Source of the DNA: an uncultured Bacteroidales bacterium
GTDB lineage: Bacteria; Bacteroidota; Bacteroidia; Bacteroidales; Paludibacteraceae
Direction: 5' to 3'
DNA: 64,000 nucleotides
NCBI GenBank assembly: GCA_900542355.1
Contig: UQNE01000002.1
Coordinates: 56,957 to 120,956 of the forward strand
Shown: in pieces, positions 3,484 through 61,339 of the stretch
Layout: each line of letters starts with the position of its first letter
Position numbering within the stretch: position 1 is the stretch's first letter
The notes under the pieces: model-generated
The model's database searches: none
What the model was told of the DNA's origin: nothing
The model's input: the letters and a program-made list of their open reading frames with translations, nothing else
Position numbers and translations under genes: made by a program

Positions 3484-3535
3484 ACAATAAAAAACATAAA
3501 TAAAAAGTCGGTTTAAAGACCGCGTTAGCATTCGA

Positions 3536-3568
3536 TTAGGTCTCGACAAGGTCTCGACAAAATCCGCT
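3536..3568 (+). repeat. truncated copy (A) of the TTAGGTCTCGAcaAGGTCTCGA intergenic repeat family, flanked by 7-bp direct repeats ATTCGAT (3530-3536 and 3569-3575)
   Basis: TTAGGTCTCGACAAGGTCTCGACAAAATCCGCT. Matches copies at 12437, 60351 and 23499(rc) apart from loss of the third GGTyTCGA unit. Confidence 0.7.
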
Positions 3569-3619
3569 ATTCGATGAGATACTATTTATTTATGTTTTTT
3601 ATCAGAAAATGATTAGGCA

Positions 3620-12227: not shown

Positions 12228-12436
12228 TCTGCACGCTGCTATTTTTAGATAAGGACATAGCGAAAGCGATAGTAAACGGGAGAGGCTGTCTGATGAGTAA
12301 TCGGGCAGCCTTTGTTGTTGGATAGCGGGAGGAACTTGACGCCGATGAGCGAATGTTGATCGCAATGAGTAGGTTTTGACATTTTGTAAGCAATGTAATA
12401 AGAAAAGTAGCAAAATGATTATTTACGAGCAGTGTA

Positions 12437-12514
12437 TTAGGTCTCGACAAGGTCTCGATGAGGTTTCGACAAAAACGGCTCAAAGTCGGCTTGACAAAAA
12501 GACAGCAAAAATAG
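12437..12514 (+). repeat. full-length copy (B) of the TTAGGTCTCGAcaAGGTCTCGA repeat family
   Basis: TTAGGTCTCGACAAGGTCTCGATGAGGTTTCGACAAAAACGGCTCAAAGTCGGCTTGACAAAAAGACAGC. About 75 % identical to copy C at 60351. Confidence 0.75.
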
Positions 12515-12689
12515 CAAATTGATAGAAAGTTGTACAGAACGACCGAAAAAGATGTAGCGGTGGGGCATTGCACATTTTTGTTCGCAAAAATTGGCTGTGG
12601 GAGGCATAAATCGGTGGTAAGCAGGGCATTTTGTAGGACTTTTTACTCTAAGTTGCGGCAAGAAACACAAAATAATTTGTAAGTTTCGG

Positions 12690-23435: not shown

Positions 23436-23499
23436 CTCAATCGCAGCCGTTTCAGTCCTGTTTTTGTCGAACTTTTGTCGAGACCTAATCGAGACCTAA
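23436..23499 (-). repeat. copy (D) of the TTAGGTCTCGAttAGGTCTCGA repeat family, inside the dcw cluster between ftsW and murG
   Basis: Reverse complement reads TTAGGTCTCGATTAGGTCTCGACAAAAGTTCGACAAAAACAGGACTGAAACGGCTGCG. Same orientation as dcw transcription. Confidence 0.7.
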
Positions 23500-23525
23500 G
23501 GCTGTGTTGCAACTTTTAGTTATTT

Positions 23526-26189: not shown

Positions 26190-26779
26190 ATTAATTACCA
26201 TATAATTTACCATTAATTTCTATCTCGACCACAAGCATGGTCTTGCATAGAGTATTAATTATCATTTAATTTATCATTAACGCCATCCCTCTAAATCCAT
26301 CATGCTTCATCTATTATTTGCTATATACAACTTGCATATCTTTATTCACTAAATCACAAATGTTTGTTTTTGGGTCATATACCCAACGCTCACCTACAAG
26401 ACTTTTTTCACCAAAATTGATCAACAAACCTATTGGTTTCTTCGTCAATCGGAGATAATTACATAATTGTGCTCTGTGATCAGAGGTCAAGTGCTCTACA
26501 GATTTGAGTTCTATGACAATATCGCCAACTAAAAAATCTACCTTATATTTTTTCTCCAATAGGTGGTTCTTGTACCGAATAGGTATTTCCTGCTCGCGCT
26601 CGTTTGGAATATTCATATCATTGAGTTCTACTTGAAGAGCCTCTTGGTAGATTGGTTCAAGCAAGCCGAACCCCAACTCATGATGTACTTCCATGGCTGC
26701 ACCTATTATGTTGTAAATCTGCTGTTTATATTCTTGTATAGAGAACATAATTAATGAATAATTATATGTTAATTATATG
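26190..26779 (-). mobile_element. putative miniature cassette carrying a GxxExxY gene, bounded by imperfect AT-rich inverted repeats (26190-26219 and 26749-26779) and inserted between murD and mraY
   Basis: rc(26190-26219)=aaattaatggtaaattatatggtaattaat versus 26749-26779 aattaatgaataattatatgttaattatatg, ~23/29 identical. A second direct copy of the left repeat lies at 26254-26280. The cassette is AT-rich relative to the flanking dcw genes. Confidence 0.35.
26314..26748 (-). CDS. GxxExxY protein (PD-(D/E)XK nuclease-like small protein family)
   Basis: GFGLLEPIYQEAL is the G-x-x-E-x-x-Y signature. Also DFLVGDIVIELKSVE, consistent with a PD-(D/E)xK core. 144 aa is the typical size. Confidence 0.8.
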   Translation of the reverse strand: MFSIQEYKQQIYNIIGAAMEVHHELGFGLLEPIYQEALQVELNDMNIPNEREQEIPIRYKNHLLEKKYKVDFLVGDIVIELKSVEHLTSDHRAQLCNYLRLTKKPIGLLINFGEKSLVGERWVYDPKTNICDLVNKDMQVVYSK

Positions 26780-33370: not shown

Positions 33371-33589
33371 TTTGTATCCTTGTCAGTTTTAATTTCGCTG
33401 CAAAGGTACAAAATTTATTTGATATACCCCACTTTTCCCCACAAAAAAAATATCCATAGGATTTTCAACAGGTTATCAACAAAATGCGATAGATATAGTT
33501 TTCTGATAATCAAATAGTTGTATAGGTTGTAAACAAAATGGTGGAAAGTGGGGCAAAATAACGGTGATGATACTTCATCGCGCAATACG

Positions 33590-33719
33590 ATGCATAATTA
33601 CGAATGCATGATTCAATGCATAATGCATAATTAAGAATGCATAATGTATGCTATTTTCTCCGTTTTGGGGTCTTTGATCCTTCGGAGGTGGTTCGAACAA
33701 TGCATAGTGATGAATGCAT
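33590..33719. repeat. array of seven ATGCAT hexamers within 130 bp, five in the extended form (G/C)AATGCATAATG, 220-350 bp upstream of mraZ
   Basis: ATGCAT at 33590, 33604, 33616, 33623, 33637, 33700 and 33714. Confidence 0.7.
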
Positions 33720-33821
33720 AATGCGTAGTGGAATGCTCGATATTTGCTCGATATAGGTTCGGCGTAGTATGCTACTGATAATGATTAGATAATGACTTGT
33801 ATATGACTCTTGTATGACTCG

Positions 33822-33935
33822 GGGGTTAGATGGTATAGGGAGACTATATACCCTAGATGCTATAGGAAATCTAGGGAATATAGGGGAACTAGGGGATCTA
33901 TATGATGCTCTAGATACCAGGGGAAATAGGTATTC
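33822..33935 (+). repeat. purine-rich element with 10-bp-periodic CTAG/ATAG spacing (copy E1)
   Basis: gggggttagatggtatagggagactatataccctagatgctataggaaatctagggaatataggggaactaggggatctatatgatgctctagatacc. Confidence 0.7.
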
Positions 33936-34002
33936 TTGTATATCTTGTGTTCTGTTGATTGGTGGTAAAAAATACAAAAAATAGAGAAAAATGTCGGTGA
34001 TA

Positions 34003-34034
34003 TTTGCACAGTTCAAAAAAAAGCAGTACTTTTG
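34003..34034 (+). promoter_or_regulatory. Bacteroidetes sigma-A promoter (TTTG-N20-TActTTTG) for tRNA-Gln
   Basis: caaaaaaaagcagtacttttgcagtcgctttt. Nearly identical to 61184-61214. Confidence 0.55.
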
Positions 34035-34091
34035 CAGTCGCTTTTGCGGAATGGTATGCTTATCAGTAGTAGAAGCGCATTATTTTGACGG

Positions 34092-34163
34092 TGTCCAATG
34101 GTATAAAGGCTATTACGTCAGATTTTGGTTCTGAAAATCCTGGTTCGATTCCGGGTTGGACAA
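34092..34163 (+). tRNA. tRNA-Gln (anticodon TTG)
   Basis: Manual fold: 7-bp acceptor stem tgtccaa/ttggaca with U1-A72 (typical of bacterial tRNA-Gln); anticodon stem tcaga/tctga; loop ttTTGgt; T arm cctggTTCGATTccggg. No encoded CCA. Terminator hairpin follows. Confidence 0.8.
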
Positions 34164-34170
34164 CTAAGGA

Positions 34171-34192
34171 AGAGCCGCAAGGCTCTTTTTTT
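34171..34192 (+). terminator. intrinsic terminator after tRNA-Gln (agagcc-gcaa-ggctct plus T8)
   Basis: Read directly. Confidence 0.6.
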
Positions 34193-34377
34193 ATGGCTAA
34201 TCGAAAGACAGTCTGTATGATAGATTGAAGGTTTGTCTTTGTGGCAGATTGGAGGGTCGTTTTGTATGGAAAGTCGGGAGATAGGCAAGTGTGATGGGAT
34301 ACGGGCAGCCTCACCGATACACAATAGTTTAATAGTGTAGATTTACTGCCCCATATTGAGTAACACAAACAATAAGA

Positions 34378-34941
34378 ATGAAAACTTTTGAATTGACCGG
34401 TACTCCCCGTGCGGAGTTCGGAAAGAAGGCTGCAAAGGCTCTTCGCGCACAGAACCTCGTTCCCTGCAACATCTATGGTGTAGGCGAGAACATTACTTTC
34501 ACCGTAAATGTGGCTGATGTTCGTCAGTTGATTTACACTCCCGACACGATGGTAGTTCTTCTGACTATTGGTGATACCAAGAAGACTGCTGTAGTAAAAG
34601 AGATGCAGTTCCACCCGCTGAGCGGCGATGTAATGCACATTGATTTCTTGGCAGTAGATGAGAACAAGCCTGTAACCGTTGAGATACCTATCCAACTGAC
34701 AGGTCACGCAGCCGGTGTAAAAGCCGGTGGTAAACTTGCGCTGAACATGCGTAAGATGAAAGTGAACGGTATCTATACTCAGTTCCCTGACCGCGTTACT
34801 ATCGATGTTACCGAGTTGGGCTTGGGTAAGAAGTTGGCAGTGAGCGATGTACACATTGAGGGTCTGACCATGATGAACCCGAAAGATGCGTGCGTAGTAG
34901 AGGTAAAAGCAACTCGCCAGAGCGCTGCTGCAGCACAATAA
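34378..34941 (+). CDS. rplY: 50S ribosomal protein L25 / general stress protein Ctc
   Basis: MKTFELTGTPRAEFGKKAAKALR...HIDF. 187 aa. Confidence 0.9.
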   Translation: MKTFELTGTPRAEFGKKAAKALRAQNLVPCNIYGVGENITFTVNVADVRQLIYTPDTMVVLLTIGDTKKTAVVKEMQFHPLSGDVMHIDFLAVDENKPVTVEIPIQLTGHAAGVKAGGKLALNMRKMKVNGIYTQFPDRVTIDVTELGLGKKLAVSDVHIEGLTMMNPKDACVVEVKATRQSAAAAQ

Positions 34942-35002
34942 TCCGCACCACGGAACTATCTGACAAAGAGTGGAGAAGCAGCGTGCTTTTCCGCTCTTTT
35001 TG

Positions 35003-35110
35003 GTAGATAGGGGGGGAGAAGGACTAGGGAAACTAGGAAATCTAGAGGATCTATGTAATCTAGAATACCTAGGAGATATAGAAGAGCTAGGGAATATAGA
35101 TAACATAGTG
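35003..35110 (+). repeat. purine-rich 10-bp-periodic CTAG element (copy E2) between rplY and pth
   Basis: gatagggggggagaaggactagggaaactaggaaatctagaggatctatgtaatctagaatacctaggagatatagaagagctagggaatatagataacatagtg. Confidence 0.7.
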
Positions 35111-35138
35111 TCTGACATTTCTAAAAGAATCTTTTGTT

Positions 35139-38146: not shown

Positions 38147-38603
38147 AAAGGAAAACATTGCCGAATATATCCTCTACTTATGGCAGATAGAGGACTACCT
38201 GCGGGCTTTCCCTGCACAGGCGGACGCTACGACCGAGTTGCACGACATCTGCGAGATGATGCACCGCGAGGGTGTGGCAGAGAGCGGACATATCCAATTG
38301 GCTAAGAACGCCCTTGCCGAGATGGAAGAACTGCACCTGCTCTTGGCAGACAAAGAGGCGTCGTATCGTGCGGCGGTGCTGCAACTCACACCTGCTTTGG
38401 CACTCTTTAAGGCAAAGACAGACCGCCCCGCGATGTCGGATGTAGAGGCATGCTTGACGCTACTGTATCAGATTATGTTGCTCCACTTGCAGCACCACCC
38501 GGTGTCCGGCGAGACCGAGGCGGTACAGCAACAAGCCACCTCGCTGCTCCGATACCTCAGTCGCACCTATCGCGACAACAAAGACCTTGAGGACAATGCA
38601 TAA
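38124..38603 (+). CDS. conserved hypothetical protein, likely the DUF family found beside nth in Bacteroidales
   Basis: 159-aa alpha-helical protein. Overlaps the hslR-like gene by 23 nt. Confidence 0.5.
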   Translation: MTMKMKNKKENIAEYILYLWQIEDYLRAFPAQADATTELHDICEMMHREGVAESGHIQLAKNALAEMEELHLLLADKEASYRAAVLQLTPALALFKAKTDRPAMSDVEACLTLLYQIMLLHLQHHPVSGETEAVQQQATSLLRYLSRTYRDNKDLEDNA

Positions 38604-38625
38604 TGATGAATGCATAATGCATAAT
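38595..38625. repeat. three tandem AATGCATAATG decamers starting at the stop codon of the preceding gene, 36 bp upstream of nth
   Basis: gacAATGCATAATGatgAATGCATAATGCATAATGg. Confidence 0.7.
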
Positions 38626-38660
38626 GGATTGGTCCATTAATCGTTAACAGAGAACGAAAG

Positions 38661-47022: not shown

Positions 47023-47532
47023 ATGAAAAAAGTATATTCTATACTCCGCCTCAAGACACTATCGCTGCTCTTGTTGCTCTCCTGGCTGCCCGCTGTGGCA
47101 CAGTACACTCGTCCCGTGCTTGGTATAGTGGACGATATGCATTCCACCACCCGCTCGGTGTGCGCTGTACAGTCCGACTCTGCGGCACGCGACCACCGCG
47201 TCTGGACACCCGCCCGCAACGGCTATCGTGTAACCGAGGCCGGAGCAGAACGACCGACTATGGTGGGAAATATCTGCTCTATCGGTGCTGAACGCGCTGC
47301 CGTGAATGCGTGCTATACGCAGGCTACGGCGGCTATGGCTGCCCCGCTATCGGAGATAGGGGCTATCTCGCCTTACGAGGATACCCCGACAGAGATGTCC
47401 CGTCCGCGCCGTGTCAGCCCGGGCGGCGGTATAGGCGAACCCGGAGCGCTGCCTGTCGGCGATGTGCCGTATCCGTTCTTCGCCCTTTGCTTAGCAGCCT
47501 ATTGGCTCTCCGCCCGCCGCAAGAAAGCCTAA
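47023..47532 (+). CDS. small secreted Ala/Gly/Pro-rich protein with C-terminal hydrophobic anchor plus basic tail (…YPFFALCLAAYWLSARRKKA); function unknown
   Basis: Signal peptide MKKVYSILRLKTLSLLLLLSWLPAVAQ. Begins 35 bp after the giant gene. GC-rich (>60 %) relative to surroundings. Confidence 0.5.
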   Translation: MKKVYSILRLKTLSLLLLLSWLPAVAQYTRPVLGIVDDMHSTTRSVCAVQSDSAARDHRVWTPARNGYRVTEAGAERPTMVGNICSIGAERAAVNACYTQATAAMAAPLSEIGAISPYEDTPTEMSRPRRVSPGGGIGEPGALPVGDVPYPFFALCLAAYWLSARRKKA

Positions 47533-47579
47533 GAAATCACTCAACACCCGTCGCAAGAAGGTGTAAGAGGAAAGAAAAA

Positions 47580-47667
47580 GCAGATAGAAATGCTATTTTT
47601 ACCACAAAAAAGACATTTCTATCTGCTATTTTTCGTATAAAAAAAGACATTTCCATCTGCTTTTTTT
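47580..47667 (+). terminator. compound intrinsic terminator: 13-bp inverted repeat gcagatagaaatg / catttctatctgc plus T-tract, followed by a second near-copy of the 3' arm (gacatttccatctgc) plus T7
   Basis: Read directly. Ends the giant-gene transcription unit. Confidence 0.6.
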
Positions 47668-47918
47668 ATTGAGCCGCTTCATCGTGCATTCATTAAATGC
47701 CATATAAAGTTCGTTAGAGCGCAGTGGACACCGGCCATTGAATACACTATGGTTCTCTGTTAAGACCCACCATTGCGTCCACAGACTTATGGAATCCCCG
47801 GAATAGCGGTTAATTCGTTAAGACAATGGAGAAAAGAAGGATATGAAAAATTGGCAACCTTTTTTAATACAACTAAGAGTATTACAAGAGTAGTATCAGG
47901 GTATTATTTGGTTCGCTT

Positions 47919-47962
47919 AATCACATACTAATCACATACTAATCACATACTAATTACATAGT
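47919..47962. repeat. tandem repeat, 4 x 11 bp (AATCACATACT x3, then degenerate AATTACATAGT)
   Basis: Read directly in the AT-rich spacer upstream of ileS. Confidence 0.8.
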
Positions 47963-48037
47963 ACGGTAAGGGGGCATATAGTAGCCAAACAGGGCGCAAA
48001 CTATGGACTGGAAAGATAAAAATAAGACAAAATAACG

Positions 48038-48102
48038 ATTAGACATGTAATTGCCATTGGTTTTTCAATATATAATTACCATATAATTAGACATGTAATT
48101 GT
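48038..48102. repeat. 16-bp direct repeat ATTAGACATGTAATTG (48038-48054 and 48087-48102) flanking tataattaccatataatt, a motif shared with the GxxExxY cassette flank
   Basis: The 15-mer AATTACCATATAATT occurs at 48073-48087 and at 26193-26207. Confidence 0.6.
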
Positions 48103-48271
48103 GTATTCATCATTATGCACTTATGCATTGAATAAAGCATTCTTGATTTGGTGCGGTTTGCGCCAAAAAACGGGTTGCGGTTGCGTATATCAGATTTTTG
48201 TAGTAACTTTGTGCGCTATTTGTACCAATAGCCCTCAACGAGTAATAAACAGATATATAGCAATTTGATAT

Positions 48272-51200
48272 ATGAAGAAGTTTAATGAGTACAAACAACT
48301 CAATCTGCCGGAGTTGAGCCGAGAGGTATTGGCGGATTGGGAGAAAGAAGACCTATTCCACAAGAGTATAGAGACACGCGAGGGACACCCTGCGTTCCTT
48401 TTCTTTGAGGGTCCCCCTTCTGCCAACGGTATGCCGGGTATTCACCATGTGTTGGCGCGTACTATCAAAGATACTTTCTGCCGCTATAAGACCATGCAAG
48501 GGTATCAGGTGCGCCGTAAAGCCGGCTGGGATACACACGGACTGCCCGTAGAACTGGGTGTGGAGAAGATGCTGGGCATCACCAAAGAGGATATAGGTAA
48601 GAAAATCAGCGTGGACGAATACAACGCTGCCTGCCGACGCGAGGTGATGAAATACACCAAAGAGTGGACGGCACTGACCAAGCAAATGGGCTATTGGGTG
48701 GATCTGGAGAACCCTTACATCACTTACGACAATAAGTATATCGAGACCTTGTGGTACTTGCTCAAACGCCTGTACGATAACGGTTATCTTTATAAGGGTT
48801 ACACCATTCAGCCCTATTCTCCCGCTGCGGGAACGGGCTTGTCGTCGCACGAGTTGAACCAACCGGGGTGTTACCGAGATGTGAAAGACACCACTTGCAC
48901 GGCTCAGTTCCGTATCACCGACCAAGAGGGCAGCAGTGCATATCACGACTTGTTTGCCCTTGTGGCAAAAGAGAATCTGCCGCTCTACGCCTTGGCGTGG
49001 ACCACTACACCGTGGACACTGCCGAGCAATACCGCCCTCTGCGTAGGACCGAAGATTGACTATGTCGTTGTGCGTGGAGAGAACCCCTACACGAAGATTG
49101 GTGCATTGTATCTGTTGGCAGAAGCACGCTTGGCTGCTTATGGCAAGGAGTTGGGCGAGACGCCCGAGGTACTATGGCGCGGCAAGGGAACAGACCTCGT
49201 GGGGCTGCACTATGAGCAGTTGATACCGTGGGCAAAACCTGACGGCGACGCCTTCCGCATGATAGCAGGCGATTATGTAACCACCGAAGACGGTACGGGT
49301 ATCGTACATATTGCGCCTACCTTTGGTGCGGACGATGCATTCGTAGCCAAAAAAGCCGACATCGCCGGAATGGTGTTCTTGACAAAGAAAGGCGAGCAGC
49401 GACCAATGGTGGACATGACGGGTAAGTTCTTCCTCTTGGAGGACTTAGACGATGCGTTCGTAGCTAAGCATATCGATGTAGAGGCATACAAGCCTTGGGC
49501 AGGACGCTTCGTGAAGAACGCCTACGACCCCAATCTCACAGACAAAGATGAGACCTTAGACATCGCTATCTGCATGGTGCTGAAAGCCGAAAACAAGGCG
49601 TTCAAAATAGAGAAACATATCCACAACTATCCTCACTGCTGGCGTACGGATAAGCCTGTCCTCTACTACCCGCTCGACTCATGGTTCATCCGCTCCACCA
49701 AGGCACGCGAGGAGATGATTCGCCTCAACAACACCATCCATTGGCAACCCGAATCGACCGGCACAGGGCGCTTCGGCAAATGGCTGGAAAACCTGAACGA
49801 CTGGAACCTGTCGCGCTCGCGCTACTGGGGTACGCCGCTGCCTATTTGGCGCACCGAGGACGGCAAAGAGGAGATATGTATCGGCAGTATCAAAGAGTTG
49901 TTCGAGGAGATAGATAAGTCCGTCAAAGCCGGCTTTATGAAGACTAACCCCTGGCCGAAACATGTCGTGGGCGACTACTCGAAAGAGAACTACGACCCGA
50001 GCGTGATAGATCTGCACCGCCCGTATGTGGACAGCATCGTACTATGCTCGCCGAGCGGCAAACCGATGAAGCGCGAATTGGACTTGATCGATGTATGGTT
50101 CGACTCGGGAGCAATGCCCTACGCGCAGAACCACTATCCGTTTGAAAATCAGGACGCTCCGCGTACAGCAGATTTCATCTCCGAGGGCGTGGATCAGACG
50201 CGCGGTTGGTTCTTTACGCTGCACGCCATCCATACGATGATAGAAGACAAAGTGGCGTACAAGAATGTGATTTCTAACGGATTAGTGCTGGATAAGAACG
50301 GCAATAAGATGTCGAAACGACTGGGAAACGCCGTCGATCCGTTCGCTACATTGGATAAGTACGGAGCCGACCCGGTGCGCTGGTATATGCTCACCAACTC
50401 CAGTCCGTGGGACAACCTGAAGTTCGACCCCGAGGGCGTAGATGAGATACGCCGTAAGTTCTTTGGTACACTATACAACACCTATGGTTTCTTTGCGCTC
50501 TATGCTAATGTGGACGGCTGGCAACCCGAGTCGGCACAAGGCTTAGACAAGGCTGCGCTGACGGAGATAGATAAGTGGGTACTGAGCCGCCTCAACTCGC
50601 TCATAGAAGAGGTTACCGCCGATTACGAGGCTTATGAACCTACCAAGGCAGGCCGTGCTATATCCGACTTTGTGCAAGACGACCTAAGCAACTGGTATGT
50701 GCGCCTCAACCGCAAGCGTTTCTGGGGCGGCGAGATGGATGCCGATAAGCAAGCAGCCTATCAGACACTCTATACCTGCCTGAAGACTATTGCGCAACTG
50801 ATGGCGCCCAATGCACCATTCTTCGGCGACCGACTCTACCGAGACTTAACCGGCAAGACCGTACATCTGAGCGATTGGCCAAAAGCCGACAAGGCACTCA
50901 TCAACCATACCTTAGAGCGCAGTATGTACCTTGCGCAACAGGCTACATCGATGATTCTGAGCCTGCGTAAACGCGCAGAGAAGAATGTGCGCCAGCCTTT
51001 GCAGAAAGCAGTAATTCCTGCGCCCGACAAAGAGACGCTCGAGGCTCTGCTCCATGTGCAAGACCTGATAAAGAGCGAGGTGAATGTGAAAGAGTTGGTC
51101 ATCACCACGGCGGAGAACTCGGAGGTGAAACTCGTGAAGAAAATCAAACCGAACTTCAAAGTATTGGGTAAGAAAGTAGGCGGCAAGATGAAAGAGTTGG

Positions 51201-60244: not shown

Positions 60245-60350
60245 GCAGGGAATACTTAATTGATTTAGATAGAAGGAAAATGACATTTTGTTTACTTTTC
60301 TGCCGAAAAACGAACAAAATGATTGTTTGGGTGCTAAGTCTTAGGTCTCG

Positions 60351-60414
60351 ACAAGGTCTCGACGAGAGTCCGACAAAGTTGGCTCAAAGTCGGGATAACA
60401 AAAAGATAGGAAAA
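60351..60414 (+). repeat. full-length copy (C) of the TTAGGTCTCGAcaAGGTCTCGA repeat family
   Basis: TTAGGTCTCGACAAGGTCTCGACGAGAGTCCGACAAAGTTGGCTCAAAGTCGGGATAACAAAAAGATAGG. Confidence 0.75.
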
Positions 60415-60486
60415 CAGGCGAAAAAGTAGAAATTGTATGGATAAGGAGGATTAGGAAAAATGAAGGAAACGAGCGAAAGGAAAGAG

Positions 60487-61183: not shown

Positions 61184-61214
61184 TTTGCTATATCAAAAAA
61201 AAGCAGTAATTTTG
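61184..61214 (+). promoter_or_regulatory. Bacteroidetes sigma-A promoter (TTTG-N19-TAatTTTG) for rpmH
   Basis: agttttgctatatcaaaaaaaagcagtaattttgcagtcgctttt. Confidence 0.55.
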
Positions 61215-61339
61215 CAGTCGCTTTTCGTCTAACGGCTAAGACGGAGTAGAGAACTGTATAAATAGAACCCGCCCGATGAAGGGGTTTCGCAGCAGATTGC
61301 GAGATACTTTCTGATAGGGCATAAACCTAATAAAGAGAG

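Follow-up and report, generated by a model that had tools for sequence, protein, structure and literature searches.

A short sequence that opens with TTAGG and runs on in tandem 11 nt units recurs in the 64,000 nt stretch of DNA analyzed here (the window), and it raises the question of what kind of element it is, one that works as RNA carried at the ends of transcripts or one that works as DNA. A first-pass annotation of the window had listed four copies of a sequence it did not recognize and had described them as REP/BIME-like. All four are there, with TTAGG starts at 3536(+), 12437(+), 23499(-), and 60341(+), the last lying 10 nt from the start at 60351 given by the annotation; we refer to them as copies A to D in this order.

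A dispersed family of non-coding repeats

The pattern TTAGGTCTCGA-NNN-GGTCTCGA occurs in the window at exactly these four positions (n = 4). The unit GGTCTCGA itself is found nine times against an expectation of 1.36, a count reached in 0 of 100 shuffles, and the two-unit pattern with up to three mismatches gives six matches where 0.31 are expected. A profile HMM made from approximately 30 long copies outside the window returned exactly four copies within it (nhmmer E values of 1.4e-35 for B, 2e-33 for D, 3e-14 for C, and 1e-9 for A), and the profile recovered three additional degenerate copies, and no more, from approximately 560 kb of flanking DNA. The four copies are thus members of a genuine family of dispersed non-coding repeats, whose host is an uncultured gut Paludibacteraceae bacterium.

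The first-pass annotation had proposed counting the element more widely. The pattern is present in 64 metagenome loci, which after merging of orthologs represent 52 distinct sites, the window included. Nearly all of these loci come from two human-gut assemblies that are mutually 97 to 99% identical where they overlap. Copies were collected by the exact two-unit pattern, so the conservation of the core is partly built in. Logan contigs stop within the core, where assemblies break, and copy counts are therefore lower bounds. The 11-mer repeat thus fragments short-read assemblies at defined positions and so bears on the contiguity of metagenome-assembled genomes; the MAGs of the window species (GCA_964310545.1 and GCA_902461235.1) are themselves fragmentary. 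Among 185,579 reference genomes (one per GTDB species), the 19-base pattern gave two unrelated chance matches and nothing else; the element is absent from this collection. The same pattern had zero matches in viral contigs, plasmids, and phages, and a phage or plasmid origin was rejected on these searches. Rfam searches of the whole window at the gathering threshold, and around copy B at E values up to 10, returned a tRNA and noise only, and no paper describing the motif, or repeats in Paludibacteraceae, was found in the searchable literature, in keeping with the initial failure to recognize the sequence. A match to the terminal repeat of a known IS or MITE, which the annotation had named as an outcome that would count against it, was absent from everything searchable. 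The family is undescribed in the same material and is best classed as an interspersed mosaic, or minisatellite, repeat. To our knowledge, interspersed repeats in gut Bacteroidales outside Porphyromonas are almost unstudied. Exact matches to RecA, RecO, and MurG assign the host to an uncultured Paludibacteraceae/Bacteroidales MAG from gut metagenomes, among them Hadza samples.

Architecture of the short and long forms

The element exists in two forms. The short form (copies A and C and approximately 18 others) is the 11 nt array alone, with two to six units. The long form (copies B and D and approximately 30 others) spans approximately 150 nt and consists of a leader of approximately 65 nt with two boxes, a core of five 11 nt units, and a tail of approximately 40 nt with a third box. 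Core units follow the consensus (T/C)NAGGTCTCGA and succeed one another at 11 nt, approximately one helical turn each; units 3 to 5 of the long form are distinct, yet conserved. The leader boxes read TTGACATTTTG (Box1) and TAGCAAAATGATA (Box2), and the tail carries Box3, TTGACAAAAAGAnAGCAAAA, plus a weaker TAGAAAnATG.

Copy B, a long form on the plus strand, extends from 12372 to 12520. Its Box1 TTGACATTTTG lies at 12376-12386 and its Box2 TAGCAAAATGATT, with the quasi-palindromic skeleton TAnCA-W3-TGnTA, at 12408-12420. The core (12437-12491) is made of the units TTAGGTCTCGA, CAAGGTCTCGA, TGAGGTTTCGA, CAAAAACGGCT, and CAAAGTCGGCT, and the tail (12491-12520) of Box3 TTGACAAAAAGACAGCAAAAA followed by A-rich units. 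Copy D, also a long form on the plus strand (60278-60427), is located between convergent genes, with Box1 at 60281-60290, Box2 at approximately 60312-60324, the core at 60341-60395, and Box3 at 60396-60405; it is kept in other strains, where homology stops at approximately 60424. Copies B and D are 75% identical over 126 nt (12403-12528 versus 60307-60432), and A and C share the core only. Copy A (3519-3568, plus strand), found by both the profile and the pattern search, has a degenerate unit GTTAGCATTCGA followed by TTAGGTCTCGA (3536-3546), CAAGGTCTCGA (3547-3557), and CAAAATCCGCT (3558-3568). Copy C (23447-23508, minus strand) occupies the ftsW-murG spacer and comprises two TTAGGTCTCGA units, CAAAAGTTCGA, and CAAAAACAGGA. 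Copies B and D reach approximately 65 nt further upstream than the annotation had given, and the tail '...CGACAAA..GGCTCAAAGTCGG' that it had ascribed to every copy is found in B and D but is altered in C and missing in A. Its observation that each copy comes after the stop codon of an upstream gene and on that gene's strand is borne out, TTAGG lying 53, 210, 27, and 97 nt past the stop for A to D, as is its explanation of the spurious reverse-strand ORFs with a common '...RDLVET*' ending: this tail results from translating the reverse complement of the core as far as its TAA. Approximately 150 nt downstream of copy B, there is a canonical promoter for secDF.

The geometry of the long form is strict. 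Relative to the core, Box2 is found at -25/-26 in 29/29 long copies, Box3 at +58 in 26/30, and Box1 at -56 to -58 in 17/21, while the spacers in between are near random, with a pairwise identity of 0.33 against a background of 0.26. The boxes share a quasi-palindromic skeleton, T-R-N-C-A-W3-T-G-N-Y-A, whose center varies among copies, being either AAA or TTT, and whose CA...TG and T/A flanks are constant. Within the window, the boxes are essentially confined to B and D. Conserved boxes separated by near-random spacers could also arise through modular assembly, as an alternative to purifying selection. The distances from box to box, 31 to 32 and 83 to 84 bp, equal three and eight turns of 10.5 bp. 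The case for helical phasing rests on these two distances; a Fourier test for such phasing gave no clean peak at 10.5 to 11 bp. Intrinsic DNA curvature was set aside. The Fourier spectrum of A/T tracts showed peaks at 9.5, 10.5, and 11.5, separated by nulls, and this analysis was not used because common descent of the copies dominates the signal.

A further conserved module, GTGGTGTCCTAAAATAGGTTGACCAAAT, is located 60 to 100 nt downstream of cores at several loci (L005, L023/L030, L027, L042, L054, and L063). Seven of its 12 distinct occurrences (of 11 if the ortholog L030 is left out) lie within approximately 100 nt of a core, which suggests further building blocks of the mosaic.

RNA structure and coding potential

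The hairpin CCGAC/GTCGG proposed in the first-pass annotation is not conserved. A consensus RNA fold sought in 32 long copies on both strands was not found, RNAalifold giving about -3 kcal/mol for either strand. When sequences were folded singly, B and C did no better than shuffles; D alone folds well (z of -3 to -4), and the hairpin is therefore specific to this copy. Two other pairings were considered and dropped. One, a hairpin through ACGG/CCGT pairing in units 4 and 5, is present in just approximately 6/30 copies. The other, between Box1 and Box2, lacks covariation of the A and T types: approximately 14 pairs are complementary and 11 of the same type, where 60% complementary would be expected.

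The annotation had further supposed that copies are carried in 3′ UTRs. An intrinsic-terminator-like hairpin precedes the element at approximately one-third of long sites and follows it at approximately one-third, so carriage in a 3′ UTR is not a defining property; one copy, moreover, lies inside a coding sequence. Copy B belongs to the sites with an upstream hairpin: GGCTG...CAGCC, followed by TTTGTTGTT, lies at 12283-12319 on the plus strand, between the stop of the upstream gene (12227) and the element. Copy B begins approximately 50 nt beyond this hairpin and is therefore not obviously in a 3′ UTR. No terminator-like site was found inside B or D. With neither an internal terminator nor an Rfam match nor a consensus fold, an intrinsic terminator or a structured 3′ UTR RNA was rejected.

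Other signals read from the transcript or the template were likewise discarded. Copies B and D have a common open frame (…RSRQGLDE…), but other copies carry stops in that frame, the distance from ATG to core differs among copies such that the frame is shifted, and every forward frame is interrupted by stops once an array has at least three TTA-type units; a small protein gene was accordingly rejected. The Bacteroidetes promoter (TTTG, 17 to 23 nt, TAnnTTTG) has no conserved occurrence in the element on either strand, and a scan of B and D for sigma-70-type promoters was uninformative. The sense strand of the element is A-rich and largely unstructured. Predictors of rut sites ask that C exceed G over approximately 78 nt of unstructured RNA; the C/G ratio here averages 0.79 and never exceeds 1.0, and therefore the element is not rut-like. 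Counts of GGTCTC and GAGACC (BsaI-like, Type IIS) in the window, 8 and 17, were uninformative on the idea of a restriction target.

Gene context and orientation

Gene calls at the loci were crude ORF calls, with doubtful cases checked by hand. Long forms occupy spacers between tandem genes in the co-oriented (11-12) or anti-oriented (2) sense, convergent spacers (11), and a single divergent spacer. Short forms are distributed over tandem co-oriented (6), tandem anti-oriented (7), convergent (1), and divergent (2) contexts; they occur in any intergenic context and once within a gene. Convergent and divergent contexts inform on location only and not on orientation. The co-orientation with transcription claimed by the first-pass annotation therefore applies to all four copies of the window and to the long form in general (11-12 versus 2), but fails for core-only copies (6 versus 7). 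Pfam annotation of neighboring genes gave unrelated housekeeping functions (HisRS, CysRS, adenylosuccinate lyase, IspG, a LolA-like protein, a TolC-like protein, MurG, and GT9), and the lack of relation among the neighbors of short copies argues against the operator of a regulon.

Orientation also follows base composition. The top strand of the element is the locally G-rich strand at 38/51 sites (p = 6e-4), at 16/20 short and 22/31 long ones. When only sites with an absolute skew of 0.03 or more and 4 kb or more of available sequence are counted, placement on the G-rich strand rises to 28/31. In the window, the plus-strand skew turns to -0.10 precisely where copy C lies on the minus strand. 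Local GC skew is thus at least as good a guide to orientation as gene strand is, and the mean sense-strand skew of genes is merely +0.019. GC skew over 3 to 14 kb is a noisy proxy of replication direction that itself partly tracks gene strand; with this proviso, the orientation bias probably reflects a link to the replication strand. A bias of this kind is seen in single-strand (HUH-type) transposition.

Insertion, turnover, and strain variation

Comparison of strains and relatives indicates that the copies behave as inserted, evolving DNA. At locus L043, six units (66 nt) sit in frame within an MBOAT gene (L043:6475-8445) and add 22 amino acids, GVVESSSRPNRDLTETASRPHQ, which 14 homologs of 75 to 87% identity do not have. 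For annotation, the 11-mer repeat is a source of spurious ORFs and of at least one real in-frame protein insertion. These homologs show a second hypervariable insertion (GENRVSVPSPSEGGDG-like; alignment columns 530-565), present in some and missing from others, which is independent of the 11-mer insertion. The window has an ftsW-murG spacer of 123 nt; a relative whose MurG is 80% identical has one of 16 nt with no element, and another relative has one of 77 nt without this unit. The same dcw cluster contains, between mraY and murD, a PDDEXK_3-family gene (26314-26748, minus strand) that is found in the window and four strains and is missing from L067, and therefore represents a presence/absence polymorphism. 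In the murE coding region of two relatives, there are exact 11 nt tandem duplications, two copies of AGATCCTTCGG and two of ATCCTTCGGGA (L074 5808-5829 and L075 5719-5741).

Variation among strains takes several forms. The number of units at one site is three in one strain and four in another, and the third unit at site C is perfect in one strain and degenerate in another, a replacement of the unit. In strain L068, a segment of approximately 110 nt at site B is divergent, yet Box1, Box2, core, and tail are kept. Sites A and D are identical or nearly so across strains of the window species. Unit numbers that vary among strains could be used as typing markers.

Copy A is embedded in an AT-rich hairpin cassette (3487-3602, plus strand) with 22 nt arms at 3487-3508 and 3581-3602 that are 95% complementary and a fold z of -5. 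The arms are conserved at the orthologous spacer between the genes for DUF4861 and GT9 in three related lineages (GT9 identity of 77-83%), where the cassette is found at L088 2309-2501, L091 2197-2501, and L094 9800-10001, between the DUF4861 gene and the GT9-parA-parB genes. Its center, approximately 72 nt, holds a different 11 nt array in each lineage. The window lineage has GGTCTCGA units; the closest relative has the same core, inverted and diverged (20/25); in two further species, the units are of the CGTATCCTCTC, GGTATCCTCCT, or TACATCCACCT type (ATCCTC/ATCCACC), and one of these species carries ATCCACC-type arrays at two more loci, TAAGGTGGATA three times and TATCCACCCGG three times. 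A distinct 11-mer family for each lineage at an orthologous site therefore requires either repeated replacement and homogenization across loci or coevolution with a trans-acting factor. The cassette is possibly a hot spot for insertions or a segment that flips slowly. In an inverton test, inverted-repeat arms were found at site A only, and the orientation was the same in all seven strains of the window species. Other 11 nt arrays in relatives (L072 19817-19885; L075 16-39 and 560-610) consist of three GTTATAGGATG units beside three of TATCCACCCGG, two GGTAGTGCTAT units, and decaying CACCTTCGAAT, and tandem repeats of 11 bases appear to be a habit of the whole clade.

Comparison with known repeats

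We searched for the hallmarks of mobile elements. In long copies, a flanking 11 nt inverted repeat was seen in 1/32, with nothing consistent in the way of TIRs; among short copies, long arms flank copy A only, and these are the conserved local hairpin described above. Flanking direct repeats of at least 8 nt accompany 6/32 copies against 1.5 expected, a weak enrichment at variable distances. No recurring IS-like, transposase, or RAYT-like partner was found in approximately 700 kb of flanks, and no autonomous IS with the same ends among the metagenome loci or the plasmid and phage collections. An all-against-all megablast of the loci returned orthologous pairs only.

The REP units of Proteobacteria are imperfect palindromes that fold into hairpins whose GTAG foot is conserved, and RAYT is a Y1 HUH transposase whose gene the repeats typically flank; gyrase, IHF, and RAYT have been proposed as binders of REP/BIME, and a class of IHF-binding elements, RIB/RIP, lies at the 3′ ends of transcription units. 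The present family resembles REP/BIME in its short conserved motifs with variable linkers, its lineage-specific sequence, and a proposed binding of protein at the DNA level. The bias of the long form to the 3′ side of genes resembles that of BIME and RIB elements, and the strand bias would fit a replication-coupled single-strand mechanism, as in REPIN-RAYT. A location downstream of genes or in convergent spacers, and rarely in divergent ones, is shared by the long form, whereas the short form departs from it. The palindromic hairpin unit of approximately 20 to 40 nt is lacking, the core here being a direct repeat. The REP/BIME-like label of the first-pass annotation therefore captures the mosaic style and the position of the long form on the 3′ side of genes in the sense direction, but not a conserved hairpin. 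Because neither the REP hairpin nor consistent TIRs were found, and TSDs are weak and variable, we file the family under neither REP nor MITE.

Two further systems share parts of the design. BOX elements of Streptococcus pneumoniae have the structure boxA-boxB(n)-boxC, with a boxB of approximately 45 nt and stable folds, and are dispersed between genes. Our family has the same modular A-B(n)-C order, with a tandem middle module, and the same dispersal in intergenic DNA, but its unit is 11 nt long, it has no conserved fold, and its host belongs to a different phylum. Plasmid R1 carries parC, a centromere-like iteron array in which ParR binds two sets of five 11 bp repeats. Five 11 bp direct repeats in helical register are common to parC and the present element and suggest that protein binds cooperatively along one side of the helix; parC, however, is a solitary plasmid site adjacent to its par genes, whereas the present element occupies dozens of sites in the chromosome and has no gene linked to it.

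A counterpart within the Bacteroidales is BrickBuilt of Porphyromonas gingivalis, which has 19 copies built from 1 to 23 units of 23 nt (Klein et al. 2015, PMC4596501), with small inverted-repeat ends, promoter activity, and a leader and tail of up to approximately 300 nt (PMC4596501). Both families are found in Bacteroidales, are restricted to a species, comprise tens of intergenic copies, and consist of a leader, a short repeat arranged head to tail, and a tail, with some copies lacking leader and/or tail. Our element differs in having an 11 nt unit, fixed at five in the long form and ranging from two to six in the short form, and in its lack of consistent TIRs and of a canonical Bacteroidetes promoter motif. 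We compare the two by description and make no claim that they are the same family, because the unit lengths differ (11 versus 23 nt).

Candidate explanations

Together, the conserved boxes, random spacers, skew-linked orientation, and lineage-specific 11-mers point to a putative trans-acting protein. Our leading interpretation, which we consider about an even bet, is a lineage-specific interspersed mosaic repeat that acts and evolves as DNA through a protein that binds or mobilizes it. The phased units and boxes would be binding sites for a trans-acting DNA-binding protein, most likely a recombinase-like or transposase-like factor that spreads and homogenizes the repeats, as RAYT does for REP/BIME, or alternatively a host architectural protein. 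Arrays would change through slippage or unit replacement, selection would purge copies from promoter regions, and the long form would be a site of fixed geometry, approximately 150 bp in length, retained almost solely downstream of genes. Recognition of double-stranded DNA by protein is favored by the helical period of the repeats, the flippable centers of the quasi-palindromic boxes, strict spacing combined with free spacers, and indifference to terminators. A broader version of this proposal, which is tentative and in our judgment doubtful, is that 11 bp iteron arrays are found throughout Paludibacteraceae, with a lineage-specific unit that a fast coevolving DNA-binding protein keeps uniform across dozens of loci and with the long form as a replication-oriented nucleoprotein site of approximately 150 bp downstream of genes. 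Were such a clade-wide iteron system real, it would be an element of chromosome structure or topology, or a domesticated replicator akin to REP-RAYT but based on direct repeats rather than hairpins. Identifying the protein partner would reveal how direct-repeat elements without a hairpin spread and function in bacterial chromosomes.

The biases could instead mark sites where insertions are tolerated. A selfish or decaying non-autonomous mobile element of the MITE, BOX, or BrickBuilt type, with no role for the host, is a possible explanation that we hold to be on the unlikely side. It accommodates the BrickBuilt-like layout of leader, repeat, and tail, including the copies that lack leader and tail, the insertions in an operon spacer and in a gene, the polymorphic unit number, the assembly breaks at the core, and the avoidance of divergent promoter regions. 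It sits poorly with the lack of consistent TIRs, clear TSDs, and an autonomous partner, and with the absence of the near-identical paralog pairs that recent bursts would leave. Moreover, the spacers are saturated, yet boxes and spacing are held within 1 nt and without indels, which is unlike neutral decay, and the boxes persist within the hyper-divergent segment at site B. Action as RNA, in which the element would be a cis-acting part of 3′ UTRs or operon spacers and serve as an unstructured platform for protein, a stabilizer, or a signal for Rho loading or termination, seems improbable to us. The co-orientation of long forms with the upstream gene (11-12 versus 2) and their enrichment between convergent genes are what such an element would display, as is an A-rich and largely unstructured sense strand; copies with a terminator hairpin downstream, approximately one-third of sites, would be transcribed, and C residues approximately 11 nt apart are reminiscent of rut sites as the predictors describe them. 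The C/G ratio of 0.79 and the lack of conserved structure, with B and C folding like shuffles, speak against it, and approximately one-third of copies, B among them, lie past a terminator-like hairpin. A flip of box centers from AAA to TTT would destroy a single-strand motif, and core-only copies are equally frequent in both orientations and occur within the dcw operon, which is essential and would be harmed by termination. Control of adjacent genes by a specific transcription factor that uses the array as its operator, such as an OmpR/PhoB-type regulator on direct repeats 11 bp apart, would explain the 11 bp period and the many short copies 11 to 82 nt from a start codon; since the adjacent genes have no common theme, long forms avoid divergent regions that contain promoters, eleven of them lie between convergent genes, and one copy is within an ORF, we think this very improbable.

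Other repeats in the window

Several other repeats were noted. A second 11 nt tandem repeat, four units of TAATCACATAC, lies at 47918-47961 in the spacer 47532-48272; stretches around it (47912-48124) match the flanks of unrelated loci (L026 1-55, 100% identical; L043 and L057, 81-88%), and the sequence similarity points to another interspersed repeat family. In the same spacer, right after the gene that ends at 47532, nested inverted and direct repeats at 47575-47665 (AAAAAGCAGATAGAAATGCTATTTTT and similar) resemble two terminator hairpins with A/T flanks. Arrays of a ATGCATAATG-type motif occur in several spacers (33587-33741, 38593-38637, L048, L051, and L094 3245-3275), several times directly beside 11-mer arrays. 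CTAG-rich short repeats (TAGGGAATATAG and similar) fill 33827-35099, and a 351-residue ORF in this region (34063-35118, minus strand), which overlaps a tRNA gene at 34092-34163 on the plus strand, is probably spurious. Finally, a 33 nt block that contains GTACTTTTG (a TAnnTTTG-type -7 box) is present at 34013-34045 and 61193-61225 with 97% identity, ahead of the tRNA gene at the first site and of the gene for ribosomal protein L34 at the second, and is probably a shared strong promoter.
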